Positions 2,787-30,628 are shown, counted from the stretch's first letter. The stretch is DNA of 32,000 nucleotides from Sutcliffiella rhizosphaerae (GCF_917563925.1 NZ_CAKJTJ010000009.1:77118-109117), one strand, 5' to 3'. The notes: a model not told the origin generated them from the sequence alone. Numbers and translations are program-made.

Positions 2787-3113
2787 AATAGCTTTTTGAA
2801 AAGTTGATTTCGATTTTTTCTCTAGAAGCCTTGTGCTGCAAGATGTTAAGAATTTCTTAATCAAACGTTTGTTTGAAAAAACCTATTGTAGAATAGAGGT
2901 TTGTGTCGATTCTTGTTGATATTAGTCGCGTTTGTGAATTATACCACTACACCTTTTTTAAAAGTTAATTTCTCAAAAAAACTTATCAACCTTATAGCAA
3001 TAAGGATTAGCCATTACTATTAATCGGACGTTCGTTTGAAAATTACTATCTTAAAAAATCATAGATCTGTTACTAATTCACGTGCTGCAGTTTGGAATAT
3101 TGGATTTCACTTC

Positions 3114-3281
3114 ACCTTTCGAAGCATCCGTAAAACCATTCGTGTTCTTTTGGAAAACTTTGATGGTGTTCTGCAAACCTTTCAAGGTGTTTCACGAACC
3201 TTTGATTGTCTTTCGCAAACCTTTGAAGGTATCACTCGTACCTTTGATGCTAACTCGCTAACCTTTCGAGGTCCACGCGTG
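3114..3281. repeat. Tandem array A: 8 units of exactly 21 bp
   Basis: Cores (acctttc, accattc, aactttg, acctttc, acctttg x3, acctttc) start at 3114, 3135, 3156, 3177, 3198, 3219, 3240 and 3261. Plus-strand consensus is AACCTTTGA/CCTTTCGA. On the minus strand it reads CMTCRAAAGGTT. A degenerate unit (tttggaatat) lies at 3093. Confidence 0.9.
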
Positions 3282-3365
3282 ATCTCCATCACATGGGCTC
3301 ACTATGTTCTCGAAAATAGCCCTATTAAAAAAAGCCCTCACTTCAAAAGTGACGGCTTTTTCATT

Positions 3366-4013
3366 TTATTTACTATCTACTAATAATAGGACTTCCGGTT
3401 TATTTGCGTTATTTACGACAAATATACTATATACTGTGTTTTTATCAAATTTCTTCCGAGGTAAGTCTAGAATTTTTTTCCCATCCGTTGTGGTGATCTC
3501 CAAAGCATATTTGCCAGGCTTAAGTTGCTGATATACGGTAATATCTTTGAATGCTACTCCTGTAAATAGTTTGTTCTCTTTTTTGATACGTACATCGACT
3601 TTTGGTGCATCTGGTGAAAGATGTCCCAATCGGACTAGTGTTTTTCCTTTTGGCGCTTTTGTCGTATCTTCCACAGCAATTAATTCTAAGGAGTTCAGCT
3701 TATTAACAGCAGCTAACGTGTAAAATTTCCCGCCATCGAGCGATAGCTCTCTTGAAATAATTGCCTTGTCCTTAGTACCCGCCGGAAAAATCTCCAATTT
3801 ATGTGCACCAGATGCAATTGGGAGGTATTTCGTTGCATCTTTAAATTTAGCCCCACTTACAACTGCTTTATTGTCTATATAAACATCGACAGCTTGTGCA
3901 TCGGGTGAAGCATGCAAAATTCGAACTTTCGCTTCTTGTGGAGCAGCATAGGCATTATTCAGACAACTAAATAAAAATAGGAAAACCAAACTTACACTAA
4001 CTAATTTTTTCAT
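3366..4013 (-). CDS. Secreted DUF4397 domain protein with two internal repeats
   Basis: 215-aa ORF with an N-terminal signal peptide (MKKLVSVSLVFLFLFSCLNNAYA). It has two copies of the (V/L)R(I/L)xHxSPDAPxVDV... module typical of DUF4397. The SD AAGGAG precedes the ATG. Confidence 0.75.
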   Translation of the reverse strand: MKKLVSVSLVFLFLFSCLNNAYAAPQEAKVRILHASPDAQAVDVYIDNKAVVSGAKFKDATKYLPIASGAHKLEIFPAGTKDKAIISRELSLDGGKFYTLAAVNKLNSLELIAVEDTTKAPKGKTLVRLGHLSPDAPKVDVRIKKENKLFTGVAFKDITVYQQLKPGKYALEITTTDGKKILDLPRKKFDKNTVYSIFVVNNANKPEVLLLVDSK

Positions 4014-4084
4014 GTTTTTTCTCCTTAACTATGTAAAGTTTCTATTCATAGTTAGTATGAAAAAAAAGAAGTATTTTTATGTAT

Positions 4085-4126
4085 ATAAAAAGCTGACATT
4101 AGCACTTAGGCAAATGTCAGCTTTTT
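4085..4126 (-). terminator. Rho-independent terminator after pruA
   Basis: Perfect 10-bp stem agctgacatt (4091-4100) / aatgtcagct (4113-4122). On the minus-strand RNA it is followed by UUUUAUAUA. It begins a few nt after the stop at 4132-4134. Confidence 0.8.
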
Positions 4127-4131
4127 TACTA

Positions 4132-5679
4132 TTATAAAGTTTCAGAAGTTGTTTTTGCTTGTAAGTGAAGTAGTAGGTAATCTGGTCCACCAGCTTTAGA
4201 GTCTGTACCAGACATGTTGAATCCACCAAATGGTTGGTATCCAACGATTGCACCTGTACAACCACGGTTGAAGTATAAGTTACCAACGTGGAAGTCTTCA
4301 CGAGCTTGCTCAATTTTGTCGCGGTTATTAGTGATTACCGCTCCAGTTAAGCCGTACTCTGTGTTGTTAGCAATTTCAAGCGCATGATCGAAGTCTTTTG
4401 CTTTTGCAAATGCTACAACTGGTCCGAAGATTTCTTCTTTCATTAGGCGAGCTTCTGGATCTACGTCTGCAACGATAGTTGGCTGTACGAAGAATCCTTT
4501 GGAGTTGTCCCCTTCTCCACCTGCTGCAATGCGTCCTTCTTCTTTACCGATGCCTACGTATTTCATTACTTTGTCAAACGCAGCTTGGTCGATAACAGGA
4601 CCCATGTAGTTGGATGGATCTGTTGGATCACCAACTGTTAGTTCTTTTGTTAACTCTACTGCACGGTTAAGAACTTGGTCATACACATCTTCCACAATTA
4701 CTGCACGAGAGCATGCAGAACATTTCTGACCAGAGAATCCGAATGCAGATTTTACGATAGATTGAGCTGCTAATTCAAGATCTCCCTCGCTATCTACCAC
4801 AATCGTATCTTTACCACCCATTTCAGCGATTACACGCTTTAACCAAATTTGGCCTGGGTTGACTTTGGAAGCACGCTCATAGATGCGAGTTCCTACATCA
4901 CGAGAACCTGTGAAGGAAATAAAACGAGTACGTGGGTGGTCTACTAAGTAGTCCCCAACCTCAGCTCCGCTTCCTGGTACGAAGTTAAGTACTCCAGTAG
5001 GTAAGCCTGCTTCTTCCATTACTTCTACAAATTTAGCTGCAACTACAGGTGTAGTGGATGCAGGTTTTAATAGTACAGTGTTTCCAGATACAATCGCCGC
5101 AACAGTAGTTCCAGCCATTATTGCAAATGGGAAGTTCCATGGAGAGATGATAACACCTACACCAAGTGGGATATAGTTATAACGGTTATATTCGCCTGGA
5201 CGGCTTTCCACAGGCATTCCGTCTTTTAGTTTTAACATTTGACGTGCATAGTACTCTAGAAAATCAATTGCTTCTGCAGTATCTGCATCTGCCTCATTCC
5301 AAGGCTTCCCTGCTTCTTTCGTTAAAAGTGCAGAGAATTCGTCCTTACGACGACGAATGATAGCTGCCGCACGGAACAAAATGTCTGCTCTTACTTCAGG
5401 CTTCACTTTGCGCCACGTTTTGAACGTTTCATCAGCAACTTGCATTGCTTTCTCCGCTAAGTCACGATCTGCCTTTGATACACGACCAATAACCTCTTCT
5501 TTATTTGCAGGGTTTACGGAAACGATTTTTGATTCAGTCGTAACACGCTCTCCACCGATAACTAAGTCGTAATCTTGTCCTAAATAAGAATTCACTAGCT
5601 TCAAGCCTTCAAGATAAGCTTGTTTATTTTCCTCGTTAGTGAAATCAGTAAATGGTTCATGTTTGTAAGGTAATACCAT
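4132..5679 (-). CDS. pruA: 1-pyrroline-5-carboxylate (L-glutamate gamma-semialdehyde) dehydrogenase, RocA/PutC type
   Basis: Near-colinear with B. subtilis RocA as I recall it (HEPFTDF.., [49 protein letters not shown]). The track ORF starts at 5721, but the ATG at 5679 ([10 protein letters not shown]) has the SD AAGGAGGG and gives the expected 515 aa. Confidence 0.92.
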
Positions 5680-5724
5680 TACATTAGCCCTCCTTTGCAT
5701 TCTACAAGCGCTTGCATACATTTC

Positions 5725-5753
5725 TCATTCTACCTTATCATTACTAGTCTTTC
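5725..5753 (-). promoter_or_regulatory. SigmaA-type promoter for pruA
   Basis: On the minus strand: TTGAAA (5753-5748), a 17-nt spacer, then TAGAAT (5730-5725), about 45 nt upstream of the start codon. I found no sigma54 -24/-12 element (TGGCAC-N5-TTGCA). Confidence 0.6.
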
Positions 5754-5916
5754 AAATATTGTTTATTTAATATAGAAAGAAAAATTGCTGGCTATAGACA
5801 GGATAGGACAAACACAAAATTGTGCTAATTATCCGACATTTAATCAAAGGTTATATGTATGCTTTAGAGCATATGATTTTGCCAAAGAAGTTCGAAAGCA
5901 GGTATATGTTTTGGAC

Positions 5917-6063
5917 GAAAATAGTGATAAAGCTAGGCAAAATATCTAAAAATGTTGTGAAAATATCTAAAAACGTTGTGTATTTATCGATAAATGCTGT
6001 GAAAATATCGATAAGTCTCGGGAATATATCAATAAACACCCTGAACATTTCGATACCATCTAA
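5917..6063. repeat. Tandem array B: 7 units of exactly 21 bp, plus-strand consensus GAAAATATCGAWAA+N7
   Basis: Units start at 5917, 5938, 5959, 5980, 6001, 6022 and 6043 (for example caaaatatctaaaaatgttgt and gaaaatatctaaaaacgttgt). The 14-nt core is essentially the same as array E read on the opposite strand. Confidence 0.9.
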
Positions 6064-6096
6064 ATTTATGGTATTTTCCTTTCATTGGAGCACACC

Positions 6097-6132
6097 AAAA
6101 AGCCTACTATTCAAGAAAATAGTAAGCTTTTT
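6097..6132 (-). terminator. Rho-independent terminator after the camS/yerH-like gene
   Basis: Stem agcctactatt / aatagtaagct with one G-U pair on the minus RNA, followed on the minus strand by UUUUUGG. It abuts the stop at 6136-6138. Confidence 0.7.
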
Positions 6133-6135
6133 ACT

Positions 6136-7296
6136 CTAATAAATATGCACAAACGGTTTTTCAGCACCGGCATCTCGTACGACCAGGGCTTCCTGACCAC
6201 TGATGGAAGAGATGGATACTTGTAGATTGATATAGTTAGGGAAATGCTCTAGCAATAGTCCTGTTACATATTGAGTGAAGCCGATAAGCTCCGCCTTACC
6301 GTTGAATTCCATATTCACTTCAATAGCTAGCTGTTGGAGCTCGCCGTCTTGATAGTACCCTTTTCCGACTACACCCGTATGGTTAGGGAAGTAGTCATCA
6401 ATATCAAGCTTAAAGTTTTCGAAACGAACGGCATCCTCTCTATATAGCTCGGTTGTTTGACGATTTGGGAAAAGACGGTACTCTTCCTTCACTTCATCCC
6501 ATCTTCCAATTGTGCCATCGCCTCCCCCAACAGTAGCTTGAGCAATAAAGTTTCCAGGCACGATGGAATTGGCAGGGCTTTGTTTGTATAGACCGATAAT
6601 AACTGGAACATTGGCAAGGCCTTCCATGTTACGAATACGCTTCAAGACTTCCTCAGCAATTCTCTTACCTTCTTGCTCTATTTGTTCATCTGGAATAGTA
6701 TACTCCCTTGGGAAACCACCTTCATTTGCTGTGAGATTATAATAATGGACAGAGTTAAGGGCGATACCTATCGCTATTCCGCCAAGTTCTACTTGATCTT
6801 CGCCGCGGCGGATCAGGTAATTTTGCTCTTGAATATGAGCAAGAATAATTGGGCTGTTTTCATTTGTTTCTTCAGTGTCTTCTCCTTCAACCAATGGCGG
6901 ATTCAATCCTTGGCTGTCCTCATCACTTGGATCCACTCTATTTAGCCATGAACGGACAACATCTCGTTTGATGTATTGCCCTTCCTGATATAAATAGTTC
7001 TCAGAAGGGAATACATCTTGTGCCATTCGCATCAGGCCGGTTTCGAGTTCTTCCACATCCACCCTACTGCTTAAGCGCGGAGCGATTTGACCACGGGTTT
7101 CTCCTGGCTTATAGGGAAGAATGGTTTGATAATAATCATCTGATATTTTATATCTTGGGACAATGGCTTGTTCCATATTTTCTTGTTGCGCTGGATCTTG
7201 CACCACTTCTTCCTGTCTTTCAAATCCTGGCACACATCCAGTGGCAAAGAGGGAAACAACAAGGAGCAACGATAAAAACCTTTTCACTTCCAACAC
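6136..7296 (-). CDS. camS: CamS-family sex-pheromone/lipoprotein (YerH-like)
   Basis: The lipobox LFATGC follows a signal peptide. The gene sits immediately downstream of ligA, as yerH does in B. subtilis. The track start is GTG at 7296. The GTG at 7287 (MKRFLSLLL) is better spaced from the SD AAGAGGTG and may be the true start. Confidence 0.75.
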   Translation of the reverse strand: MLEVKRFLSLLLVVSLFATGCVPGFERQEEVVQDPAQQENMEQAIVPRYKISDDYYQTILPYKPGETRGQIAPRLSSRVDVEELETGLMRMAQDVFPSENYLYQEGQYIKRDVVRSWLNRVDPSDEDSQGLNPPLVEGEDTEETNENSPIILAHIQEQNYLIRRGEDQVELGGIAIGIALNSVHYYNLTANEGGFPREYTIPDEQIEQEGKRIAEEVLKRIRNMEGLANVPVIIGLYKQSPANSIVPGNFIAQATVGGGDGTIGRWDEVKEEYRLFPNRQTTELYREDAVRFENFKLDIDDYFPNHTGVVGKGYYQDGELQQLAIEVNMEFNGKAELIGFTQYVTGLLLEHFPNYINLQVSISSISGQEALVVRDAGAEKPFVHIY

Positions 7297-7299
7297 CTC

Positions 7300-9321
<2,022 letters not shown>

Positions 9322-11586
9322 CTATCCTTGAACTTTCGTTACAGGTGCAAATTTTGCCAATAGCCGTTTAATACCGGTCGGACTTGGAAAAGCGATATCA
9401 AGTTCCTTACTGTCGCCTTCCCCTTTTACACTTACCACTGTTCCGATGCCCCATTTTTTATGTTCCGCTTTGTCACCGACCATCCAATCCAAACTTTCTC
9501 CGCCTGTGGACTTTAACGGACGTGTAGGTGTAGATGCTCGACGTGGGTTTGCAGGCGCAGCTGCAGCTCTTCCTCCACCAAACGGGGTGGACGTTTGCGT
9601 TCTGTTGCCAAATGGAGTTGGGCGGGATTCCGTAATAACTAGACTTTCTATGAGCTCTTCTGGTATTTCTTTTATAAATCGGGATGGGGGATTGATATTG
9701 GTTCGACCAAATAATGTCCGCAGCTGCGCATTTGTAAGGAAGAGTTCTTCTTCTGCACGGGTAATTCCTACATAGGCTAGGCGGCGCTCCTCTTCCATTT
9801 CCGCTTCTTCAAATAAGGAGCGGCTGTGCGGGAAGACACCCTCCTCCATACCAATTAAAAATACTACCGGAAACTCCAATCCTTTCGCCGCGTGAAGTGT
9901 CATTAAAATGACCCCTTCCTGCTGGGCGGCATCCTCTTCATCTAATTTGTCTATATCTGCCACAAGGGCTAGATCTGTTAAAAATGCCACAAGACTTTTG
10001 TCATCGTATTTTTCTTCAAAATTTTTCGTAACAGATAGGAATTCATCAATATTCTCTAGTCTGCTTTGTGATTCAATGGTTTTGTCCGCCTTCAGCATGT
10101 CACGGTAACCAGATTTTTCGAGTACTTCCTCCACAAGTTCAGTGACCGATATATATTCCTGCATTTGTACATAATTCTCAATTAAGGAACGGAACTCCTT
10201 CAACTGAGAAGTCGCTCGTCCACTGACACCAATGAGGTCCACTTCTGCAAGAGCCTGAAAAATAGATATGTCATGCTCTGTTGCATAATTTGCAATTTTA
10301 TCAACAGTCGTCGCTCCAATTCCTCGCTTTGGAACATTAACAATACGCTGCAGACTAATATCATCGTCCGGATTAGCTATTAAGCGTAGATATGCCAGGA
10401 TATCTTTAATTTCTTTACGGTCATAGAACTTTGTCCCGCCTACAATCGTGTAATTGATATTGGACATGAGGAGCATTTCCTCCATTACCCGCGATTGAGC
10501 GTTTGTCCGATAAAGAATGGCAAAATCACCTAGAGTTCGTTTAGGATTCTTTTGCATTAGTTCTCGCATTTTTCCAACAACAAATTGCCCTTCCGATTTC
10601 TCAGAATCGGCTTGATAGTGGACAATTTTTTGCCCTTCATCGTTTTGTGTCCATAGGTTCTTCTTTTTTCGGCTAATATTGTTATCAATCACACGGTTTG
10701 CCGCTTCAAGTATGCGTTTAGTGGAGCGATAGTTCTGCTCAAGTAATACAACCTCTGCTTTTGGATAATCTTTTTCAAAAGAAAGGATGTTGGCAATATC
10801 CGCCCCACGCCAGCGATAGATGGATTGATCGGAGTCCCCTACTACACATAGATTTTGCAAGCGATCTGCAAGTAAATTTACGAGCGTATACTGCGCACGG
10901 TTCGTATCCTGATATTCATCAACATGAATATACTGAAATTTACGTTGATAGTACTCAAGCACTTCAGGCACCCTTTTGAACAGATGGATGGTAGACATAA
11001 TCAAATCATCAAAATCCAGAGCCTGATTTTTCTTCAGCCTTTTTTGATACTCTGTGTAGACCTCGCTCACTTGCTGTTCATAAGGTCCCAGTGGCTGCTT
11101 CGCATATTGCTCTGGGTTGAATAGCTCGTTTTTCGCTGAGCTAATCGTCCCTAAGATTGTTCTTGGTTCAAATTTTTTCGGGTCAATATTGCGGTCTTTT
11201 AAAATACTTTTTATAACCGAAAGCTGATCGGTACTGTCTAGTATCGTAAAATTGCGATTGAAACCAATGCGATCAATATCTCTTCTAAGAATCCTAACGC
11301 ACATGGAGTGGAAAGTAGATATCCAAATATCTTCCGCAGCTGGGCCAAGTATAGTTTCCACACGATCTTTCATTTCACGTGCTGCCTTATTCGTAAAGGT
11401 AATCGCTAAGATATTCCAAGGCGCTATTTGTTTTTCCGCCATTAAATAAGCAATCCGGTGCGTTAACACCTTCGTTTTGCCACTTCCCGCTCCAGCCATG
11501 ATCAATAATGGTCCATCCGTTTTCTTTACTGCTTCCTGTTGCATTGGGTTTAAGCCCTCAAGCAGCCTTTGACTTAAATATTGCAT
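9322..11586 (-). CDS. pcrA: ATP-dependent DNA helicase PcrA (UvrD/Rep superfamily 1)
   Basis: The N-terminus ([37 protein letters not shown]) is nearly identical to B. subtilis PcrA as I recall it. Walker A, DEYQDT and the remaining SF1 motifs are present. Confidence 0.95.
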
Positions 11587-11642
11587 GATTTCACCGTCCT
11601 AACAAACATATGTTCTTATCTTCTATCATACTAAACTTTCGC

Positions 11643-12344
11643 TTAGTTGTCTTTTCTATTTTTAACAGCAGTCACTGTTTTAAGGGCCTCAGGTAAGTTA
11701 TCATACACGACATTCCCCACGACAATGGTATCAGCATAAGCAGCCATTTCTTTGGCACGTTCAGCGGTTGTAATTCCACCACCGTAAAATAGCCGTGTCT
11801 TTTCGAGCGTTTGCTTCGTCGCTTGAACCATTTCTGGGTCGCCATACCTACCACTATATTCTAAGTAAAAGACCGGTAGATTAAACATTCTCTCTGCCAA
11901 TCTTGCATATGCAATCACATCTTCTTTCGAGAGGTTCGTGTTCGCCTCTGTCAGTTTAGCCGCTTTGCAATCCTCGTTCAAGATGCAATAGCCTTCTGCC
12001 ACAATTTCCTCCCAGTTCATAATATCTCCGAATTCTTTTAGGGCTTCTATATGCAGATCGACTACCCAGTCAGTCTTACGGCTGTTCAAGACACTTGGGA
12101 TAAAATAAAAATCAAATCCAGGTGTGACAGATTCAATATTAGAAACTTCCAATGCACAAGGCAAGGAGTATCTGCGCACCCTGCTCATCAAGCTCAGCAC
12201 ATTATCTAATGTAACGCCGTCTGTCCCGCCAACAAGTATAGCATCTGTCCCAGACTCGCACACCAGCTCCAAATCTTCGTCCGAAATTTCCTTATTTGGA
12301 TCCAATTTAAAAACGTGCTGCCACTCGCCTACTTCCATTAACAC
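11643..12344 (-). CDS. pcrB: Heptaprenylglyceryl phosphate synthase
   Basis: [24 protein letters not shown] and FYLEYSG motifs match PcrB, and the gene lies upstream of pcrA. GTG start at 12344; an alternative ATG lies two codons in. Confidence 0.9.
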
Positions 12345-12610
12345 TGCAAACTTCCCCCATTCTATTTTACCATTCCTCTATTATAGCAAAATCGGCTAGA
12401 ATACGAAAAAGAGAAAGGAAGAATGTTTGCTGGAAGTTAGGACCTTTTTTGGGATGAGGAGGTGCGGGATGAAGAGTAAGAGATTTTGGCTGGGGGCAGG
12501 GTTGCGGTGGAAACTAATCGTGCATGTGAGGCCGTGGGGGGAGAAAGTTGTGACACGAGTATTCAATAGGCTACACGTTGTGGCGGGTGAAGGTTGTTGG
12601 AATTTGTAGA

Positions 12611-12672
12611 TTCGTCAATATCTTGTCGGGACCGTCGATATTCCATGCGTTTTCGTCGATATTATGGTGGGA
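12611..12672. repeat. Tandem array C: 3 units of 21, 20 and 21 bp
   Basis: Units are ttcgtcaatatcttgtcggga, ccgtcgatattccatgcgtt and ttcgtcgatattatggtggga. On the minus strand the core reads RATATCGACGAA, which is related to the cores of arrays B and E. Confidence 0.65.
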
Positions 12673-12888
12673 CTCCGTTTCTAAACTCCACTTTCCTCCT
12701 TTTTTTACCTGAAACAGCATGTGACCCCCATTTTTTGAAAAGGAACACGAAGCATTTATCCACCTGGACCTCCCCGACCAGTTTTAAGCCCTCATTCAAT
12801 GGGTATTTAGTTCTATATATCATGGTTTTTCTCTAAAGTTGCATAAACAAGGTTTTCGAGAATATGCTTTGATGAGGAGGTGTCCAGA

Positions 12889-13047
12889 ATGCCTGTATGG
12901 CTCTGGTTTCTAATTGGTTTTGCCATTTTGCTAGCTTTTGGTGCTATAGTTGATTATTTTGGAAAAAGAAAAAGAAGTGTTGATCCAAGTGCAGTGCATA
13001 AAGACGTCGACCAAATGAGGTCTAAGCATGAATCCAATTACCGATAA
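12889..13047 (+). CDS. Small (52 aa) single-pass membrane protein, hypothetical
   Basis: Not in the ORF track, which appears to list only ORFs of 60 aa or more. The SD GAGGAGGTG lies 6 nt before the ATG. Translation: MPVWLWFLIGFAILLAFGAIVDYFGKRKRSVDPSAVHKDVDQMRSKHESNYR. It has one TM helix, then a basic tail, and is followed directly by a strong terminator. Confidence 0.6.
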   Translation: MPVWLWFLIGFAILLAFGAIVDYFGKRKRSVDPSAVHKDVDQMRSKHESNYR

Positions 13048-13052
13048 ATATG

Positions 13053-13095
13053 AAGAAGGTGGGTCACAGAATATGTGTTACCCACCTTCTTTTTA
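13053..13095. terminator. Terminator hairpin between the convergent small CDS (+) and the yerC-like gene (-)
   Basis: Perfect 12-bp stem aagaaggtgggt (13053-13064) / acccaccttctt (13080-13091), with a T-run on the plus side and a weaker U-rich tract on the minus side. Confidence 0.8.
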
Positions 13096-13112
13096 TATGC
13101 ACTTTCGCAAAA

Positions 13113-13424
13113 TTATAATTCCTTCGCCTTTTTCTCTTCTGCAACACGCTCTAGTGCCATTTCGTACGCATCATTTCCATAATTTAGGCAACGCTTTACG
13201 CGCGAGATGGTTGCTGTGCTTGCTCCTGTTTCTGTTTCGATTTTATGATAGGTAAACCCTTCGCGAAGCATTCTTGCTACTTCTAAGCGCTGTGCAAGCG
13301 ATTGAATTTCATTGATGGTACAGAGGTCATCAAAAAATCGATAGCATTCTTCGATATCTTTTAGTGAGAGGACAGATTCAAAAAGTTGATCCAGTTCTTT
13401 TCCTCGTAATTTGTTGATTTGCAT
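13113..13424 (-). CDS. yerC: YerC/YecD-family TrpR-like DNA-binding protein
   Basis: 103-aa ORF with the characteristic motif (RLEVARML..G.TY..I...TGASTATISRVKR). Its syntenic position is between the yerB-like gene and pcrB. The SD AAAGGAG lies 8 nt upstream. Confidence 0.8.
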   Translation of the reverse strand: MQINKLRGKELDQLFESVLSLKDIEECYRFFDDLCTINEIQSLAQRLEVARMLREGFTYHKIETETGASTATISRVKRCLNYGNDAYEMALERVAEEKKAKEL

Positions 13425-13450
13425 AGTGTATTCTCCTTTTTTTAGTAGGA

Positions 13451-14467
13451 CTAGTAAGATACAATATTCAGATTAGGAACGACTTGAATCCAGGTTTTCC
13501 CTGGAGCTAATGGTACTTGCTGCCCGTTTGCAAAAGGAAGGATTTTACCTTCCGCCATTTTCCATTCCAGGTCGTAGCGTATCCCTTTTTGGATGAGCAC
13601 CGCTTGACCGCCACTTTCAATATCTATAAATCTTCTTCCCTGTTTATCTAAAACAGTATGTTCTGTTTCCACGATTAAGATGTTAGCCGCAGATATCTCT
13701 TCCAATGTATCTAGGTCAGTCAGTTTTTCTCCTGCACTATACCTTACGTAATGATCATTTGTATGATTATATTTATATTCAACATGTGTCGTTTGTCTGG
13801 ATGAGTATTCTATTTTCACATAGTCAGTAGTGGTGCCATTTAAGTCGTTTGTCTCCTCTTCTTTCAAAAATAAAAGTGGAGGGACGGTTGCTTCAAGTGA
13901 GTAGTTTAGCATGGTAGCACCTTTTTCTATATTCTCTGAGGTAATATAGGAATTATGTGGTGCTTTGCGGAAACTCGCTCGGTTGAAAAGAGTTCCATCG
14001 TAAGATAAGCCATTGATTCCGTCTACTTCGCCTGCTTCTATTTTTTCTTTGGCAGCAGGACTCCACCCATGAAAGACATAAAGGGCATTATATCCTTTTG
14101 TTAAATCGACAAAGTAGTCCCTTGCACTTCTAACTGGGCCGACTGTGTCTGGTAATTCGCTATGGAAAATGGCAAGAAATCTCGTGATGTCTCCTTCTGC
14201 AAGGATTTCATAAACAATATCTGCTTTGTGTAGCCCAGATTGAGGTCTTGCTTTTTCGTCATTGTTGACCATAACAGCAAATGGTCTAGTATCTTTTTTT
14301 ATTTCTGTTATTTCCCCAGATAGTGGTGCACGTTCTACTTGTGCAACATTTTCGGTGACCTCATCTCGTTGGTCTCCTTGTGAGGGTTCATTCCGTGAAT
14401 CGTCTGACTGACAACCTACTAGCATGATCGCCAGTGCGACCATAACTAACAATTTCTTATTACCCAT
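13451..14467 (-). CDS. yerB: DUF3048-family lipoprotein (YerB-like)
   Basis: Signal peptide with lipobox (AIMLVGCQ). Size and position match B. subtilis yerB. The family call rests on synteny plus general similarity and was not searched. Confidence 0.65.
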   Translation of the reverse strand: MGNKKLLVMVALAIMLVGCQSDDSRNEPSQGDQRDEVTENVAQVERAPLSGEITEIKKDTRPFAVMVNNDEKARPQSGLHKADIVYEILAEGDITRFLAIFHSELPDTVGPVRSARDYFVDLTKGYNALYVFHGWSPAAKEKIEAGEVDGINGLSYDGTLFNRASFRKAPHNSYITSENIEKGATMLNYSLEATVPPLLFLKEEETNDLNGTTTDYVKIEYSSRQTTHVEYKYNHTNDHYVRYSAGEKLTDLDTLEEISAANILIVETEHTVLDKQGRRFIDIESGGQAVLIQKGIRYDLEWKMAEGKILPFANGQQVPLAPGKTWIQVVPNLNIVSY

Positions 14468-14513
14468 CCTTTAACACACACAACCTTTAGTAAGTTTCAT
14501 TTACTTTTATATT

Positions 14514-16259
14514 TTAACGCATTATTGACGGAAAGAGTACCGTTTTATTCATAACATCGTAGATTCCCCTTGGGGTTATTCTTATATAAGGTAGATGTGT
14601 GGATGATAAAAACAGTAAAGTATAGACTGGATCTCCAAATGGGTACCCTCTATCAAAAAGATGTTGCCGCAGCTCTGATTCTTGGTTCATCAGTTCTTCC
14701 ATTTTACAATTTGACATTCCACCTGCAAGCGGTAATGGAATTTCACTGACGACTCCCCCATTCTCAACGAGCACCATGCCTCCTCCTATTTCTTTCATGC
14801 GTTGGAAGGCCTGTAGCATTGATTGCTTATCTTTGCCGATAAGTACGATGTCTCCTGTATTGGAATAAGAGCTTGCGAATCCTTCTACATGAGTTCCAAA
14901 TCCTTTAAGGATGGTGTTGACCCTCCATCTTCCGGCCCTGTCCACTAACATTAAGAATGATTCATCATGGTCTGTCGATAATCGGTCCATCGCTACATCT
15001 ACAGTAACAGTATATGGTTTGATAATAACTTCGTTGACCATTTCCATTCCAAGTGCCATAGAAAATTGAAGGTCATCTATCGATAGCTCCCATTCAAGCT
15101 TCAATGACCCAAGACCAAGTGCAGACCAATCCTGTTCAGAGAAAGCTTCTTCCTGAACCGCCCCATCCTTTGTCACCCATCTTCCTTTGGAGAGGACAGA
15201 CACTGGTGTCGGTTTTTCCTTTGCTTCAAGGAAATTGATATTGGCAATTCTTCCAGGTGCTATGCTGCCATGATATTTTTCCATGTAGAAGTGGGTAGCA
15301 ACATTTAAGGTTGCCATCCTGTATGCTTCTACAAGTGGTACCCCTTTATCAAGAGCTATTGCAATTGCACGGTCGATAACACCGTTCTCATAAAAACTTG
15401 GGGTGGAGCCATCTGTATTAAAAAAGGTTTGGTCATAGTAATATACGCCCGATGCCTCTAGTTCTTCTAGTATAAGAGGTAAGTCCGGCCTTATGGATGA
15501 ATAGCGAAGAGAAGCATGATACCCTTGGGAAATGCGCTTTATCACATCTGCCCCATTCATCGCCTCATGGTCACTGCTAATTCCAAGCAGCTGCATTTTG
15601 GTCAGTGTTTTTTCCGATGCACCAGGAAAATGCCCTTCAACTGGTTTTTTTCTTGCATTTGCCTCTTGGACCCAATGGAGGATAAAATCATCACCGTCCA
15701 ATAATTTCGGCCAGCTTGTCAATTCTCCCCCTTGCATTACAAGTGGATGGTTTAACCAACTTTTTAGATTCCTTGTAGAAAACACTTCTTCATCATTTCG
15801 GATTTCTGTTTGCCCATCAAATCGGCACCACCAATACATCGTAGCTACTGTCTCGTTCATTTTTTCAATAAAAGAAAACGCTTTCTTTTTTGTCATTTGC
15901 AAAGTAAGCATTAAATTATCATTAACGAATGTTGTTGTTCCCGTTTTCGATGCATATTGTGCAAAAGAAAGGGGATTATAAAGTTGAAATGGATGAACAT
16001 GCGGCTCTATGTAGCCTGGCACCAGGTAGTATGATTGGCAATCAACTATCTCCGTACCTTTCGTATCGGAAGGAAATTGGTCTCCTACATAAATGATCCG
16101 GTCTTCGTAGATCCAAATGTTTGCCTTAAGCCATATTTTCATCTGTACGTTTAAGTAGGTAGCATTCGTAAGAACGATGGTCGGTGTAACAGAACCATCT
16201 ATAACAGCAATCTGTTCCCGGATTTTTTTACTTTTCCATCTATATGATTGTTCATGCAT
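14514..16259 (-). CDS. yerA: Adenine deaminase-related amidohydrolase (YerA-like)
   Basis: About 580 aa with an amidohydrolase metal-binding signature (EPHVHP). It sits next to purD, as yerA does in B. subtilis. The track start is GTG at 16268. The ATG at 16259 (MHEQS) is better placed relative to GGTGA. Confidence 0.75.
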   Translation of the reverse strand: MHEQSYRWKSKKIREQIAVIDGSVTPTIVLTNATYLNVQMKIWLKANIWIYEDRIIYVGDQFPSDTKGTEIVDCQSYYLVPGYIEPHVHPFQLYNPLSFAQYASKTGTTTFVNDNLMLTLQMTKKKAFSFIEKMNETVATMYWWCRFDGQTEIRNDEEVFSTRNLKSWLNHPLVMQGGELTSWPKLLDGDDFILHWVQEANARKKPVEGHFPGASEKTLTKMQLLGISSDHEAMNGADVIKRISQGYHASLRYSSIRPDLPLILEELEASGVYYYDQTFFNTDGSTPSFYENGVIDRAIAIALDKGVPLVEAYRMATLNVATHFYMEKYHGSIAPGRIANINFLEAKEKPTPVSVLSKGRWVTKDGAVQEEAFSEQDWSALGLGSLKLEWELSIDDLQFSMALGMEMVNEVIIKPYTVTVDVAMDRLSTDHDESFLMLVDRAGRWRVNTILKGFGTHVEGFASSYSNTGDIVLIGKDKQSMLQAFQRMKEIGGGMVLVENGGVVSEIPLPLAGGMSNCKMEELMNQESELRQHLFDRGYPFGDPVYTLLFLSSTHLPYIRITPRGIYDVMNKTVLFPSIMR

Positions 16260-16417
16260 GCTCTTCACCCATTCTTATCAGGTTATTTCAGGTTAATCGT
16301 AAATATTATCGTGATATAACCTCTTTTTACCATGTTACCATATCAAAGTTATCGATGCATTACAGAACTGATAATTATGTGAAAATTTTATTAATTTACA
16401 TTAATGGAGGGTACACA

Positions 16418-16735
16418 ATGAAAATACGACCTAATATTGGCCTTATCAACGCACTTATCCGAATAACAGCAGGCTTTGCCACACTTGCCTGGATAACGAG
16501 CAAAATGGTTAGGCGCCCCCATCGCGATTCCTATAAAGTGGTCGCATTGCTGGCAGGGATGAAAATTGCTGAAGGCCTGTTGCGTTATTGTCCACTTACA
16601 GCTGGGTTTGAGAGATTGCAGGATTACCGCAATGAACATAATGATGCAAACAATCATTACGATTTTAATTTTGATGATTTTGAAACAGACGGGGATGCTG
16701 AAGGTGAAGGTACGGAATCCTATAATCCTAGCTAA
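16418..16735 (+). CDS. YgaP-like/DUF2892 small membrane protein with an acidic C-terminal tail
   Basis: The SD GGAGGG lies 7 nt before the ATG at 16418, whereas the track ORF begins far upstream at 16244. The protein has a hydrophobic hairpin and a GLLRYCPL motif typical of DUF2892. The tail is rich in D, E and N. Confidence 0.55.
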   Translation: MKIRPNIGLINALIRITAGFATLAWITSKMVRRPHRDSYKVVALLAGMKIAEGLLRYCPLTAGFERLQDYRNEHNDANNHYDFNFDDFETDGDAEGEGTESYNPS

Positions 16736-16760
16736 GAATGGCGCTAGATCATTAAAAAAA

Positions 16761-16792
16761 CCTTTGGGAGAGTCCTTCCCAAAGGCTTTTCT
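16761..16792 (+). terminator. Rho-independent terminator after the DUF2892 gene
   Basis: Stem cctttggga (16761-16769) / tcccaaagg (16777-16785) followed by CTTTTCT. Confidence 0.7.
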
Positions 16793-16818
16793 ACTATATT
16801 CAAAAAGGAGGCACTCAA

Positions 16819-18217
<1,399 letters not shown>

Positions 18218-18224
18218 TTATTTT

Positions 18225-18470
18225 TGTTACCGTGATTCGGACAAATTTAACTGGGATTTGGACAAACCGGTTGGTGTGTCGGACATTTATACTGGGATTT
18301 CGTTAGCGGTATAGGTTTCGGACATTTATCCCAGGAATTCAAATATATCTGCATGTATTTTGGTCATACCTTGGGGATTCGGGCTTATTTCCAAGTAATT
18401 CAGACATTCACCATGAATTTCGGACATATCGGCAACTTTTTCGGACATAGCTCCATGAATTTCGGACAAA
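18225..18470. repeat. Tandem array D: about 12 units, 21-bp period, inside the purH|purD gap
   Basis: 8-nt cores (ttcggaca and variants) start at 18236, 18257, 18278, 18299, 18317, 18338, 18359, 18378, 18399, 18419, 18440 and 18461. Spacings are 21, 21, 21, 18, 21, 21, 19, 21, 20, 21, 21. On the minus (pur-sense) strand the core reads ATGTCCGAAA. Confidence 0.9.
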
Positions 18471-18516
18471 CTGACTTCATCTGTCTGTCTCTACCTCAAG
18501 ACCGCCCCGCCCCATA

Positions 18517-20046
18517 TCAATGTTTAAAATGTCTCATACCAGTAAACACCATTGTGATGCCATATTCATCTGCTTTTTTGATGGAATCCTCATCTTTAAT
18601 AGAACCACCAGGCTGGATGATTGCTGTCACGCCAGCTTTTGCAGCAGCTTCCACCGTATCATTCATTGGGAAGAATGCGTCAGATCCAAGGGCAGAGCCT
18701 ATTCCTTTATCGCCAGCTTGCTCAATCGCAATTTTTGCTGCACCGACACGATTCATTTGACCAGCGCCGACTCCTACTGTTTGACCGTCTTTTGCAAGAA
18801 CAATTGCATTGGACTTCACATGCTTCACCACTTTCCAAGCAAGCTTCAAGTCTGCCCATTCTTTTTCGGTCGGTTCTCGTTTTGTTGGAATGGTTACTTC
18901 CGCTTGCTCTAGGCCAGCCTGGTCCTCATCCTGCACTAACAGACCGCCTCGAACAGAGACAATGCGTGATGTTTTTGCGTTTTCTCCTCCCATATCAACA
19001 ACTAAGAGGCGAAGGTTTTTCTTTTGCTTTAAGACTGTTAATGCCTCTTCCGTAAAGGCAGGGGCAATGATGATTTCTAAAAATAATTCATGTAATAATT
19101 CAGCTGTTTCCTTGTCCACTTCTGTGTTAAAAGCGATGATTCCCCCAAAGATGGAGATGGGATCTGCTTCATACGCTCGGCGGTATGCCTCCACCACACT
19201 TGCCCCAGTTCCAACTCCACATGGGTTCATATGCTTTACTGCTACAGCAGCAGGATCTTTAAACTCTTTTACAATCTGAAGAGCTGTATCTGCATCATTG
19301 ATATTGTTGTATGAAAGCTCTTTGCCGTGAAGCTGTTCAGCAGATGCGATGGAAAAATCAGATGTTACAGCTGTTTGGTAAAATGCCGCCTGCTGGTGTG
19401 GATTTTCTCCATAACGTAATCCTTGCTTTTTCTCAAACGTAACAGTAAATGACTCGGGGTGCTTTTCTTCCACCGCTTCAGTTAAGTAGTTTGAAATCAT
19501 TGCGTCATATGCTGCAGTGTGGCGAAATACCTTTGCTGCTAAGCGACGACGAGTTGCGACTGCTACCTTTCCGCTTTCTTTTAGCTCAGAAACAACATCT
19601 TCATAATCGGCAGGATCCACTAGTACAGTTACATCTTTATGGTTTTTTGCTGCTGCACGAAGCATCGTTGGACCACCGATATCAATATTTTCAATGGCAT
19701 CTTCAAAGGTTGAGTCAGCTTTAGAGATGGTTTCTTTAAATGGATAGAGGTTTACTACCACTAAGTCAATAGGTGTTATCCCATGTTCACTTAACTGAGC
19801 TTGGTGGCTTTCATTGTCACGCATCGCTAGTAACCCACCGTGAATCATTGGATGCAACGTCTTTACGCGACCGTCTAAAATTTCAGGAAAGGTTGTAACA
19901 TCAGAAATTCCGATAACCTGCACTCCGCTCTCCTGTAAAACCTTTTTCGTTCCGCCAGTAGAAATGACTTCTACACCTAATTCAACCAATTGCTTTACAA
20001 ATGGGACAATGCCCTCTTTATTAGAAACGCTTACTATTGCTCTCAT
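18517..20046 (-). CDS. purH: Bifunctional AICAR transformylase / IMP cyclohydrolase
   Basis: 509 aa with an MGS-like N-terminus (ALVSVSNK-type, STGGT). The start overlaps the purN stop (ATGA). Confidence 0.95.
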
Positions 20047-20633
20047 TTTATGACTGCCTCTCCTTTGTTTGCAAAAATTTGTTGTAAGGTTTTCGGGTAA
20101 AATGTATGCTCTGTTTTGTGAATTTTCTTTTCTAGTGATTCTTTCGTTTCGTCAGGATCTACTGTTATTGCTTCCTGAGCAATAATCGGACCTGTATCCA
20201 TGCCCTCGTCCACAAAATGAATCGTTACCCCTGTCAATTTCACTCCATAAGACAATGCCTGTCCCACTGCGTCAAGTCCTGGAAAAGCAGGTAATAAAGA
20301 TGGATGTATGTTGACGATTCTCCCTTTATACGCATCCAGCAAAGTTGGACCTATTAATCTCATATAACCAGCGAGGATGATAAACTCTACCTCGTAACTC
20401 TTTAACTCACTCAGAATATGTTTTTCAAATTCTTGTTTACTTGAATAGCTTTTTGGTGCAAAGGTGAAATACGGTATATCTAAGGATGTAGCACGTTCCA
20501 CTACAAATGCACCAGGCTTATCACATACGAGTAAAGCAGGAGTGGCATCAAGCAATTCATTCCGGCAAGCATCCACTAACGCCTGAAAGTTAGAGCCACT
20601 TCCTGAAGCAAAGATGGCTATTCTTGTTGTCAT
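20043..20633 (-). CDS. purN: Phosphoribosylglycinamide formyltransferase
   Basis: 196 aa with [20 protein letters not shown] and the catalytic D of the formyltransferase fold. It overlaps both purM and purH. Confidence 0.95.
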
Positions 20634-21661
20634 CTCATTTCTCCTCCACCAAAGGTGATCCCCTCACCCTCTTTTACACGTCCGATAAGATAAGCTTTCT
20701 CACCGTTACTCTCTAAAATTTTTACCACATCTTGCAAAATTTCTTCGTTGATTGCTAAGACCATTCCAATTCCCATGTTGAAAATATTGAACATTTCTTT
20801 GCGTTCTAGCTCTCCAAACTCTTGAAGTAAATCAAAGATTGGCGGCATTGGCCAAGTACCGTAATCTATTTCTGCTTGTAGTCCTTCTGGTAGCATGCGG
20901 GGGATATTTTCAATGAAACCTCCACCCGTCACGTGTGCCATTCCGTTTATCGTATGTTTTTTCAAAACCTCTAAGATAGGTTTTACATAAATTTTCGTTG
21001 GTGTAAGAAGTGCTTCACCAAGTGTACTTGCTAATCCAGGATATTTTTTATTTAAATCCAAATTGGCGACAATTTTTCGTACAAGGGAGTATCCATTGCT
21101 GTGAATTCCGCTTGAGCTAAGACCGATTAGGACATTTCCTGCTTGGATGTTAGCTCCTGTAATAAGGCGCTCTTTCTCCACTACCCCAACGGTAAACCCA
21201 GCTAGATCATATTCGCTTTCGTCATACATACCAGGCATTTCCGCTGTTTCGCCACCTATCAAAGCACAGCCTGCTTGTTCGCAACCTTCTGCAATTCCTT
21301 TTACTATGTTTTCGATTCGTTCTGGGACAGCTTTTCCGCACGCAATGTAATCGAGAAAATAAAGTGGTTCAGCTCCTTGAACAACCACATCGTTGACACA
21401 CATCGCAACTGCATCCATCCCAATAGTGTGGTGCTTATCGAGTTGGAATGCTAGCATCAGCTTTGTTCCCACACCATCTGTTCCAGATACGAGAACTGGA
21501 TTTTTCACATTTACTGCCGAAAGATCAAACAAGCCTCCGAAGCCACCAAGTCCACCCATTACTTCTGGTCTCATCGTTTTTGCCACATGTTTTTTCATAC
21601 GGTCTACTGCCTCATACCCAGCTTCTATATCTACACCTGCTTGCTTGTATGCATTTGCCAT
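20630..21661 (-). CDS. purM: Phosphoribosylformylglycinamidine cyclo-ligase (AIR synthetase)
   Basis: The sequence [19 protein letters not shown] matches the PurM N-terminus. The track ORF starts at a TTG at 21676 that lies inside the SD GGGAGGG, so the ATG at 21661 is the likely start (343 aa). Confidence 0.95.
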
Positions 21662-21679
21662 ATGTGTCCCTCCCAATAG

Positions 21680-21716
21680 AAAAGCGACGAATATATAAAT
21701 CCCCGCCGCTTTTTTT
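21680..21716 (-). other. Terminator-like hairpin between array E and the purM SD
   Basis: The minus-strand RNA reads AAAAGCGGCG, a 14-nt loop, CGUCGCUUUU (one G-U pair), then CUAUU. It ends about 6 nt before the purM SD. The plus-strand version carries a T7 run. Confidence 0.35.
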
Positions 21717-21752
21717 GTTTGTGATTTTCTTTCTAGGTTTATTAATGATGTT

Positions 21753-21920
21753 GAATGACCGTTTGCTTATATTCGGGTCCTTTTCGATGGGCAGACCCGC
21801 CTTTTCGATATTTTCGTGCGGGTTTTTGATATTTTGGACACGTTTTTGGATATTTTCGTATCGCTTTTAGATATTTTATGGACCTTTTTCGATATATTCA
21901 TCCGCTATTTCGATATTTTC
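21753..21920. repeat. Tandem array E: 8 units of exactly 21 bp inside the purF|purM gap
   Basis: Cores (tttgctta, ttcgatgg, ttcgatat, tttgatat, ttggatat, ttagatat, ttcgatat, ttcgatat) start at 21762, 21783, 21804, 21825, 21846, 21867, 21888 and 21909. On the minus (pur-sense) strand the unit is GAAAATATCGAAAA+N7. Confidence 0.92.
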
Positions 21921-21977
21921 AAAAATCCCGGCTTATTTCTTTTCTGTTGTCAATGAGCAATTATCACCCAATAGCCC

Positions 21978-30397: not shown

Positions 30398-30452
30398 CAT
30401 CGCATAGAAAACAGACACATCGCCATGAAAAACATAGATAGTGCAAACTTCC

Positions 30453-30522
30453 CCTCATAGTCCGATCCATTTAAGGTGGTCAGGTAGAGACTTATGGGCC
30501 ATATTCCCAAAATTATATGAGG
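30453..30522 (-). promoter_or_regulatory. Purine riboswitch aptamer, guanine class (C at the discriminator, GACUAUG)
   Basis: The minus RNA is CCUCAUAUAAUUUUGGGAAUAUGGCCCAUAAGUCUCUACCUGACCACCUUAAAUGGAUCGGACUAUGAGG. It matches the G-box consensus (P1 CUCAUA/UAUGAG, UAUAAU, GGAUAUGG-like L2, CUACC, UAAAU L3) and closely resembles the B. subtilis purE leader as I recall it. Confidence 0.88.
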
Positions 30523-30550
30523 TTTCGTTATTTCATTGTTATCTACGTCT

Positions 30551-30579: not shown

Positions 30580-30628
30580 CGAAAATCATGAACAATAATC
30601 TGTTATCTTTTGTTAATGTTCGGGTTTT
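30575..30628 (-). promoter_or_regulatory. Putative PurR operator (PurBox-like sites in inverted orientation)
   Basis: The minus strand reads AAAACCCGAACATTA (30628-30613), close to the PurBox consensus AWWWCCGAACWWT. Weaker inverted partners lie on the plus strand (GTCAACGAAAATCA at 30575-30588, overlapping the -35, and ATGAACAAT at 30588-30596). I did not check spacing against the B. subtilis operator. Confidence 0.5.

Follow-up and report, generated by a model that had tools for sequence, protein, structure and literature searches.

Tandem repeats of constant size have been described in Bacillus by Subirana and Messeguer (J Bacteriol 2020, 202:e00229-20; Int J Mol Sci 2021, 22:5373, PMC8161180). 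In 176 Bacillus genomes 781 arrays with units of 20-21 nt and 1886 arrays with units of 51-53 nt were found, and most repeats have one of these sizes (PMC8161180). The repeats are non-coding and of variable, species-specific sequence; several families and dozens of arrays occur in a genome, every unit carries short 'characteristic signals', and repeats of 40-41 nt are kin to the 20-21-nt class (PMC8161180). For B. horikoshii DSM 8719, Table S1 of the same work gives 41 tandem repeats, among them 5 of 20 nt, 13 of 21 nt, four of 39-42 nt and 14 of 52 nt (PMC8161180; we checked the assignment of the columns against the 52-nt entry). The authors proposed either that a protein polymerises on the DNA at the constant repeat size and stabilises the nucleoid, or that small RNAs are transcribed (PMC8161180). 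The 52-nt class shows turnover between strains (PMC8161180), and the 52-nt repeats of B. coagulans are transcribed, as seen in RNA-seq data (PMC8161180, PMC8625621). The follow-up paper goes no further than this transcription (PMC8625621), and no later functional work on the class was found in the literature. Here we analyse arrays of 21-bp units in a stretch of 32,000 nucleotides from Sutcliffiella rhizosphaerae (NZ_CAKJTJ010000009.1:77118-109117), in the following called the window.

It is very probable that the arrays of the window are members of the 20-21-nt constant-size class of Bacillus/Bacillaceae. They have the unit length of the class, are non-coding and lineage-specific with at least three families, and carry a conserved signal in each unit. 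The original prediction had described five dispersed arrays, A to E, had not recognised them as a named repeat family, and had stated that a match to an already described family would overturn it. The class of Subirana and Messeguer is such a match (PMC8161180); it was already catalogued, including 18 arrays of 20-21 nt in B. horikoshii DSM 8719.

Four of the five regions proved to be periodic. Tandem Repeats Finder (TRF) called a period of 21 at 3154-3266 (A), 5917-6036 (B), 18411-18468 (D), and 21801-21919 (E), together with period-42 versions that scored higher. The self-match at lag 21 was 0.60 for A, 0.65 for B, 0.43 for D, and 0.57 for E and thereby exceeded the shuffle control, for which the maximum over lags 10-30 in 2000 shuffles was taken (0.41, 0.49, 0.38, and 0.45, respectively). 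The distances between successive cores were 21,21,21,21,42 in array A, 21,21,42,21 in array B, and six times 21 in array E; the spacing predicted for these three arrays is therefore correct, being exactly 21 except where degenerate units are skipped. For array D a spacing of 18-21 had been claimed, but 21,21,39,82,20,21,21 was measured, and two good blocks (~18225-18330 and ~18395-18470) lie on either side of a decayed middle. All four arrays consist of at least four head-to-tail units of 20-21 nt (6-12 units, spacing 21). Cluster C, in contrast, comprises three motifs, was not called by TRF and has a lag-21 match of 0.39, equal to the shuffle mean of 0.39, so that it is no significant array by itself. 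The information profile of the pooled B and E units shows an AT-rich core of ~12-14 bp followed by a variable, GC-richer remainder, in agreement with the unit structure described before.

The arrays were thought to share one core. When position weight matrices were compared with column-permuted controls, this did not hold: for B and E none of 500 controls reached the observed similarity, and for E and C p was ~0.012, whereas every pair with A or D gave 0.07-0.39, that is, no similarity above chance. Likewise, B aligns with the minus strand of E with a score of 48, and all other pairs score at most 25. Since only B and E, and E and C, are more alike than chance, the unit sequences point to at least three families in the window instead of one, namely A, D, and B/E, with C marginally joining B/E. 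Cluster C is possibly a remnant of the B/E family. Within this family, B and E face opposite ways relative to transcription.

All regions lie between genes supported by Pfam and no gene is interrupted, as had been stated; two of them, however, are situated inside an operon. Array D fills the purH/purD spacer of the pur operon, which measures 353 bp compared with 15-37 bp in most relatives, and array E lies in the purF/purM spacer of the same operon (304 bp vs 15-49 bp in most relatives that could be measured). Array A is located in the convergent spacer between the SSF symporter gene (plus strand) and the DUF4397 gene (minus strand), 48 bp past the terminator of the latter, and array B lies between the terminator of camS and the promoter of the aldehyde dehydrogenase gene.

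A period of 21 bp corresponds to seven codons, and we therefore considered coding heptad repeats. Over each array most of the six frames are interrupted by stop codons, with 1-4 frames per array left open; the variation between units is confined to a contiguous block of 7-9 bp and does not follow third codon positions; and the long arrays in the relatives L033, L017, and L016 (locus labels are explained below) contain no open frame. These observations rule out coding heptads. A chimeric array translation compared with 5.8 billion proteins gave no match. A spurious open reading frame (ORF) of 115 amino acids runs over array A, and similar open frames run across B, C, and parts of D and E.

For a comparison across relatives PcrB was used as query over species-representative genomes. 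This yielded 80 syntenic Bacillaceae loci, or 81 loci and ~1.5 Mb together with the window. The loci carry L numbers: L006 is B. horikoshii DSM 8719, L010 is S. horikoshii ADH2-198, L033 is Alkalicoccobacillus porphyridii, and L012/L014/L015 are S. tianshenii, S. halmapala 445, and Bacillus sp. CSS-39. The nearest PcrB relatives (82-90% identical) are all from Sutcliffiella, and in gene trees the window branches as the sister of the S. horikoshii complex, with a nucleotide identity of 80-81%. The window is a piece of Sutcliffiella chromosome (the former Bacillus horikoshii group) that extends from the pur operon to pcrB-pcrA-ligA-camS.

Regions with a strong self-match were counted over the 81 loci for lags of 6-69. 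There were 38 regions at lag 21, 37 at lag 42, 10 at lag 63, and 20 at lag 52, compared with 3-8 regions at each of all other lags. The lag-52 signal is the second class of Subirana and Messeguer. The lag-21 arrays were intergenic in 37 of 37 cases. Over 41 arrays the core spacing was 21 in 192 of 232 cases, 20 in 23 and 22 once, and 19 of the 23 spacings of 20 come from the array of L033. This array follows a strict 21-21-20 pattern (a 62-bp super-repeat with three unit types) and starts after a terminator and a short G-rich stretch. The unit cores are specific to lineages (Table 1): the cores of the window occur as arrays in none of the 80 other loci, and the families hor1, hor2, and hor3 are confined to the horikoshii complex. 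The core of L041 includes TCGCGG, which is the signal published for B. weihaiensis (PMC8161180).

The arrays have a preferred position. Their start lies ~45-100 bp past the stop codon or terminator of the gene upstream, and ~100-190 bp separate their end from the gene that follows. They were found in co-directional, intra-operon, and convergent spacers, the convergent ones being those of array A and of the metagenomic locus L093, and are therefore not promoter elements. In L006 arrays are present in the purF/purM, purH/purD, camS/aldehyde dehydrogenase, and aldehyde dehydrogenase/DUF4397 spacers. The hor1 family occurs at no fewer than four unlinked loci, namely in the purF/purM spacer (sense), in the camS/aldehyde dehydrogenase spacer (antisense), and on two S. 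horikoshii-like metagenomic contigs, once downstream of dtd and once downstream of another gene.

The metagenome scan, in which GTYACAAT was required three times at a period of 21 bp, gave 120 matches (L084-L203). Only L093 and L154 belong to the hor1 family, and most of the matches are unrelated 21-bp repeats, many of them apparently coding. Many near-perfect GTYACAAT arrays were seen as well (examples in Table 1). Some of the metagenomic 21-bp arrays resemble coding heptad repeats, others AT-rich non-coding satellites of at least 25 units. Tandem repeats of 21 bp are therefore common far outside the Bacillaceae, too. Scanning viral sequences with the B/E core yielded 25 single matches.

The degree of conservation was assessed in the horikoshii complex. 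Fourfold degenerate sites of five flanking genes differ by 0.23-0.42 (raw difference), with a Jukes-Cantor mean of 0.49 substitutions per site. The consensus sequences of 14 arrays (seven lineages at two loci each) are identical at 11 of 21 positions, and positions at the unit edges show 3-4 states. As the tree has a total length well above 1 substitution per site, we infer that neutrality would predict about 19 or more changes at the 11 invariant sites. Since these core positions stayed fixed over ~0.5 neutral substitutions per site, the comparison provides strong evidence that the core of the arrays is under selection, even with slower mutation at A/T sites.

The comparison of orthologous spacers, which had been suggested along with the original prediction, revealed gain or loss of arrays and switches between families. 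L010, which is nested in the horikoshii complex, lacks the ~190-bp element at purF/purM and at camS/aldehyde dehydrogenase, with clean boundaries, and L008 and L010 lack it at aldehyde dehydrogenase/DUF4397. In different lineages the same spacers hold different families or an unrelated GC-rich structured element of ~130 nt. Unit numbers could not be compared between strains, because Logan ERR7039798, the sole other contig that carries these proteins, does not differ from the window (100% identity). On the 47.6-kb contig 4-5 arrays are present, none of them in the ~11 kb flanking the window. The units of the window and those of the horikoshii complex show no significant similarity (B/E vs hor1, p = 0.36; D vs hor3, p = 0.03), and the neutral sites are near saturation at this distance (raw difference 0.56-0.59). 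Unit sequences and neutral sites of this kind do not distinguish descent with turnover inside a spacer from its independent colonisation.

Table 1. Arrays, unit cores, and other features. Positions refer to the window unless a locus is named.
Feature	Position	Strand	Units, core, or sequence	Remarks
Array A	3114-3281	.	~8 units x 21 bp; core AACCTTTSAAGGT on +, ATCAAAGGTT on -
Array B	5917-6063	+	6-7 units x 21 bp; core GAAAATATCGAWAA	antisense to flanking genes
Motif cluster C	12611-12672	-	3 AATATCGACG-like motifs (GTC[AG]ATAT), spacings 20 + 21	yerC/pcrB spacer
Array D	18225-18470	-	~12 partly degenerate units; core ATGTCCGAAAT	pur sense strand
Array E	21780-21926	-	7 units of exactly 21 bp; core GAAAATATCGAAAA	pur sense strand
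Window B/E family			unit core GAAAATATCGAWAA
S. horikoshii complex			unit cores hor1 GAAAAAGTYACAATAAC, hor2 TTTGGCACGAACTC, hor3 TTATGACGGGATT
L012/L014/L015			unit core GGATCGATTATG
S. halmapala DSM 8723			unit core TGTGAGAACCT
S. deserti			unit core GTTAGATGAAAT
Nanhaiella			unit core TTTGGATAGTAAA; >16 units
Ureibacillus			unit core ATTTCGTGCG
Neobacillus			unit core GTTCTATCAGCGAAT
Cytobacillus firmus			unit core TTGGCCGWTAA
A Lysinibacillus			unit core TCGCGGGT
Alkalicoccobacillus porphyridii L033	L033 8556-9720		~1.2 kb, >50 units (TCTTGGTAA...)	upstream of pcrB; non-coding
Metagenomic 21-bp arrays	L137 779-1290; L109 749-1069; L152 236-998		near-perfect GTYACAAT units
52-bp arrays	L002 8920-9493; L003 9267-9500; L007 1-520; L009 9323-9507; L010 9211-9443			yerC/pcrB spacer
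~130-nt GC-rich element	L003 ~3895-4030		paired ends CCCTGTT...AACAGGG	purH/purD spacer (example)
Solitary hor1-like core	L002 ~18449-18469			promoter-proximal part of aldehyde dehydrogenase/DUF4397 spacer (example)
Spurious ORF over array A	3036-3383 (= L082 7529-7876)	+	115 aa; heptad-like xTFxGxx repeats	public gene call; no Pfam
purF	21978-23390			pur operon (purE...purF); Pfam
purM	20630-21676			pur operon; Pfam
purN				pur operon; Pfam
purH	18517-20046			pur operon; Pfam
purD	16898-18166			pur operon; Pfam
Purine riboswitch aptamer	30438-30540	-	80 bits	pur operon leader
PurBox-like sequence	30615-30627	-	AAACCCGAACATT, 1 mismatch	upstream of purine riboswitch
GC-rich hairpin, then UUUUC	21680-21713	-	GCGGCGGGG...CGTCGC-TTTTC	directly upstream of purM ribosome-binding site
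Sub-threshold His_leader match	16752-16877	-	34.6 bits vs gathering score 49, E = 0.025	just downstream of purD
Small ORF, 52 aa	12889-13045	+	MPVWLWFLIGFAILLAFGAIVDYFGKRKRS...	own terminator 13048-13096; antisense to adjoining genes

We considered what could keep the unit length constant. The explanation that we favour, and to which we assign an even chance, is that the arrays are phased, cooperative binding sites for a putative DNA-binding protein on one face of the helix. In each unit the core of ~11-14 bp would be the recognition site of this protein, and the spacing of 21 bp, equal to two helical turns (52 bp being five), would place all sites on the same face of the duplex; the arithmetic is consistent for all three periods (21/2 = 10.5, 52/5 = 10.4, 62/6 = 10.3). 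Protomers would bind next to one another and, by polymerising, build up a short nucleoprotein filament or a wrapped complex of ~100-170 bp. Such complexes would be located just past the ends of genes, between transcription units, or in natural gaps of operons, where we infer that they structure or insulate the chromosome locally and do not serve as promoters or operators. The arrays could gain or lose one or two units at a time through slippage or unequal recombination, which would account for the 42-bp super-period, and selection would maintain the core and its phase. The lineage-specific core would then call for a co-evolving reader or for several paralogous readers, one per family.

Recognition at the level of DNA is favoured because the selected core of ~11-14 bp is asymmetric, the phase is exactly two turns, orientation is indifferent, the location is not that of a promoter, and there is no RNA structure. 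That 21 bp are two turns, with the cores on one face as in a protein-binding array, had been noted in the original prediction and fits the data; the authors of the class prefer this hypothesis as well, and the test of core conservation supports a selected core. A more far-reaching form, which we put forward tentatively and regard as somewhat unlikely, would make the arrays the landing pads of a fast-evolving family of sequence-specific, chromosome-organising proteins of the Bacillaceae, a bacterial counterpart of satellite-binding proteins. The 11-14-bp core would serve as a recognition code and the 21-bp or 52-bp phase would permit a cooperative filament; reader and arrays would co-evolve, giving each lineage a 'satellite code' of its own, and the complexes would insulate transcription units or structure the origin-proximal chromosome.

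Several points speak against arrays read by a phased DNA-binding protein. A protein of this kind is neither known nor predicted, and the window itself has none: as had been noticed before, the window holds neither a cognate binding protein nor a mobility gene, its only helix-turn-helix protein being the TrpR-like YerC homologue, which nothing ties to the arrays. The weakest link is that unrelated cores coexist in one genome (A, D, and B/E in the window; hor1-3 in the horikoshii complex), so that several readers or a protein reading DNA shape would be needed. The arrays do not share the dyad symmetry that typifies dimeric binders, which reached significance for A alone (AACCTT-TG-AAGGTT) and was marginal for hor1. 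Intrinsic curvature is predicted to be strong in some arrays and absent in others. Some close relatives (L010) lack arrays at these spacers without visible compensation, and any role must therefore be locally dispensable. The conservation of the core could also reflect recognition by a mobilising enzyme instead of a host function. Moreover, units of the window and of the horikoshii complex in the same spacer are not demonstrably homologous; therefore co-evolution of reader and array can only be conjectured. Finally, the 52-nt repeats of B. coagulans are transcribed (PMC8161180, PMC8625621).

The main rival explanation, although we regard it as unlikely, is that the arrays are selfish or nearly neutral interspersed minisatellites whose core and length are set by a mobilising or amplifying enzyme and which have no host function. 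A short G-rich leader, the array, and a tail would colonise permissive spacers behind genes, followed by slippage or unequal crossing-over. The clean presence or absence of the ~190-bp element at purF/purM and camS/aldehyde dehydrogenase in L010 would be expected in this case, as would the occupation of the same spacers by different families or by the ~130-nt structured element depending on the lineage. The leader and features of the last unit are common to two loci, super-periods of 42 and 62 bp are what satellite dynamics typically produce, and the 52-nt class turns over from strain to strain (PMC8161180). Other findings speak against this explanation. No transposase, integrase, or other mobility gene was found beside any array in the loci inspected, and no terminal inverted repeats surround the arrays, as would be required for a miniature inverted-repeat transposable element (MITE). 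The left flanks tend to be G-rich and the right flanks C-rich, but their pairing was no better than in composition-matched shuffles (mean z 0.02). Pure neutral turnover also leaves unexplained why repeats are restricted to 21/42/63 and 52 bp and why 11 core positions are fixed over the neutral divergence given above. A further proposal is that the arrays are iterons or partition centromeres that remain from a plasmid or phage after its integration, or that they act on the chromosome as decoys for replicons of this type. In architecture they are similar to iterons of 19-22 bp and to tandem centromere repeats, as known from R6K, P1, F, and pSK41, and likeness to iterons and centromere-like sites had been suggested for the window. 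We consider this proposal largely refuted: none of the genes of the window is a rep, par (parA/parB, parM/parR, tubZ/tubR), or integrase gene, array B showed no similarity in a BLAST search of 72,556 plasmids and 50,697 phages, and the arrays occupy conserved housekeeping spacers, with synteny kept across a genus and dozens of arrays per genome (PMC8161180).

Two more explanations were considered. A function at the level of RNA, already raised as an alternative by Subirana and Messeguer, would treat the arrays as parts of operon mRNAs or as transcripts of their own that serve as protein or Hfq sponges or as antisense partners. By their position D and E must be co-transcribed with the pur operon, the A-rich sense strand of E, for which no structure is predicted, would lend itself to single-strand binding, and the B. 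coagulans 52-nt repeats appear in RNA-seq data (PMC8161180, PMC8625621). We nevertheless hold an RNA function to be quite improbable. One and the same family occurs in opposite orientations to transcription (B vs E; hor1 at two loci), and A and L093 lie past terminators in convergent spacers. Folding gave no stable structure (z -0.81 for the sense strand of E, +1.54 for that of D, and -1.40 and +0.16 for the two strands of B), and the Rfam search that had been recommended for the arrays returned no match at the gathering threshold or even at E<=1. Nor does an RNA offer a reason for units of exactly 21 and 52 nt, both of which are whole DNA helical turns. This last property would suit a purely structural element in which in-phase bends create an intrinsic curvature that is selected for supercoiling or topology, with no sequence-specific reader. 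In a wedge model 16 arrays were compared with column-permuted controls, and seven, including E, L081, L072, and L041, were more curved than at least 95% of the controls; the ratio of end-to-end distance to contour length was 0.51 for E and 0.21-0.62 for L081 at a background mean of 0.95, and the A-tracts of the B/E and hor1 units are ~10.5 bp apart. The other nine arrays, A, D, L016, L064, and hor2 among them, were no more curved than their controls, the prediction depends on the wedge parameters chosen, and curvature alone does not require an invariant 11-bp core, which makes this explanation very unlikely.

Known binding sites and repeat types were also compared with the arrays. The PurBox AWWWCCGAACWWT has 22 matches at <=2 mismatches in the window, with 25.7 expected, and none within D; array D was thus rejected as an array of PurR operators. 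Look-alikes of the Spo0A box and of SpoIIID, sigma-54, sigma-D, CtsR, and WalR sites, as well as of omega heptads, Tn7 TnsB sites, Noc/ParB sites, and the DnaA box, matched only in part, and to short AT-rich motifs, and were set aside. Scans for sigma-70 promoters and for terminators stayed at or below shuffle expectation, with one weak 9/12 promoter-like match overlapping each of B and E and no terminator in any array. The arrays do not have the structure of CRISPR loci either, as they consist of contiguous 21-mers in which the 'spacer' part of 7-9 bp alternates between 2-3 versions, and the window contains no cas genes.

Three further repeat elements were observed in the relatives. Apart from the loci listed in Table 1, arrays of 52-bp units occur in L024, L026, L030, L031, L037, L051, L060, L075, and L080, and none is present in the window; one unit, for example, consists of AAAAGTCTAATAGAACGGTTCTATACGCCCGAAC and a variable part, with the palindrome TAGAAC-G-GTTCTA. 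The GC-rich element of ~130 nt was found in the purH/purD spacer of L002-L005, L009, and L010, with related copies in the camS/aldehyde dehydrogenase spacer of L013 and L016. It contains the conserved blocks GAGACCCC, GAGGAGGCTC, and GCCCCGCGGAAAGCG, has no Rfam match at the gathering threshold, and looks like a structured dispersed repeat or a MITE. A single hor1-like core (ACTTTATTGCTACTTTTTTAC, 3-4 mismatches to the array consensus) lies ~70 bp upstream of the DUF4397 gene in L002, L003, L004, L007, and L009; a shortened form, AATTGCTACTTTTTTACAT, is present in L008 and L010, both of which have no array in the aldehyde dehydrogenase/DUF4397 spacer. The solitary core may be due to chance or may be a lone binding site for the same reader.

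The window has a GC content of ~41% and most of its genes are on the minus strand. The pur operon was recognised by Pfam scans and by the purine riboswitch in its leader. It is followed by the genes for adenine deaminase, yerB, yerC (TrpR-like), pcrB, pcrA, ligA, and camS, and beyond camS by the aldehyde dehydrogenase, DUF4397, and SSF symporter genes. A PurBox-like sequence lies upstream of the riboswitch. In B. subtilis pur is under dual control by PurR and the riboswitch, and the arrangement in the window would fit this scheme. The hairpin in front of purM is kept in all Sutcliffiella loci, with or without an array; in the window and the horikoshii complex the arrays precede it, whereas in L013 and L016 they lie on its downstream side. 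The hairpin looks like an internal attenuator, a terminator, or a processing or stabilising element of the pur operon. The His_leader match downstream of purD is probably due to chance or to a terminator-like structure. The ORF of 52 amino acids probably encodes a real small membrane protein, because a similar peptide is encoded at the same place in loci of the S. horikoshii complex.

What can be stated securely is that the arrays of the window are new members, from a Sutcliffiella species new to it, of a described class that is published but little known. This class is among the few bacterial non-coding DNA elements in which the length of the unit, and not its sequence, is conserved across genera, a pattern that suggests a physical ruler, for instance the helical repeat or the polymerisation of a protein. 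The 11-position core, kept against ~0.5 neutral substitutions per site, and the exact phase offer an experimental handle, and as arrays D and E lie in the well-studied pur operon, effects on expression should be measurable. For annotation it matters that the arrays yield spurious ORFs, as in the case of array A, which has been called as a protein.

Among known systems, the iterons of plasmids (R6K, P1, F, pPS10; 19-22 bp, ~22-bp spacing) resemble the arrays in being direct repeats about two turns apart with a core and a short variable linker, an arrangement that implies protomers bound head to tail along a single face of the duplex. Iterons, however, flank a rep gene and an origin, with few copies in each replicon, whereas the arrays of the window have neither, are many per chromosome, have several unrelated cores, and stand in a housekeeping context. 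Several dispersed repeats known from the literature, namely STAR of S. aureus, BOX/boxB of pneumococci, MIRU of mycobacteria, and REP/BIME of E. coli, are similar in that they are intergenic or intra-operon, lie mostly past 3' ends and vary in copy number from strain to strain or species to species. STAR has a 14-bp GC-rich core with ~40-bp spacers, boxB comprises 45 bp between boxA and boxC, MIRU elements are 46-101 bp long with overlapping small ORFs, and REP is palindromic. Unlike the arrays studied here, none of them has a strict 21-bp phase or a lineage-specific core. The 52-nt class shares the constant length, variable sequence, conserved sub-motif, and intergenic location, and occurs in the yerC/pcrB spacer of relatives from the S. 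horikoshii complex; its unit, however, spans five helical turns. The 20-21-nt class is by far the closest. It agrees with the arrays in unit length, non-coding nature, species-specific sequence, presence of several families, a signal in each unit, related repeats of 40-42 nt, and occurrence in the horikoshii group. The location inside the pur operon, the position after gene ends, the use of the same spacers across genera, and the test against the neutral rate were not found in the papers describing the class and are added by our analysis. In essence nothing separates the arrays from this class, which the window extends by a new species and new unit sequences.

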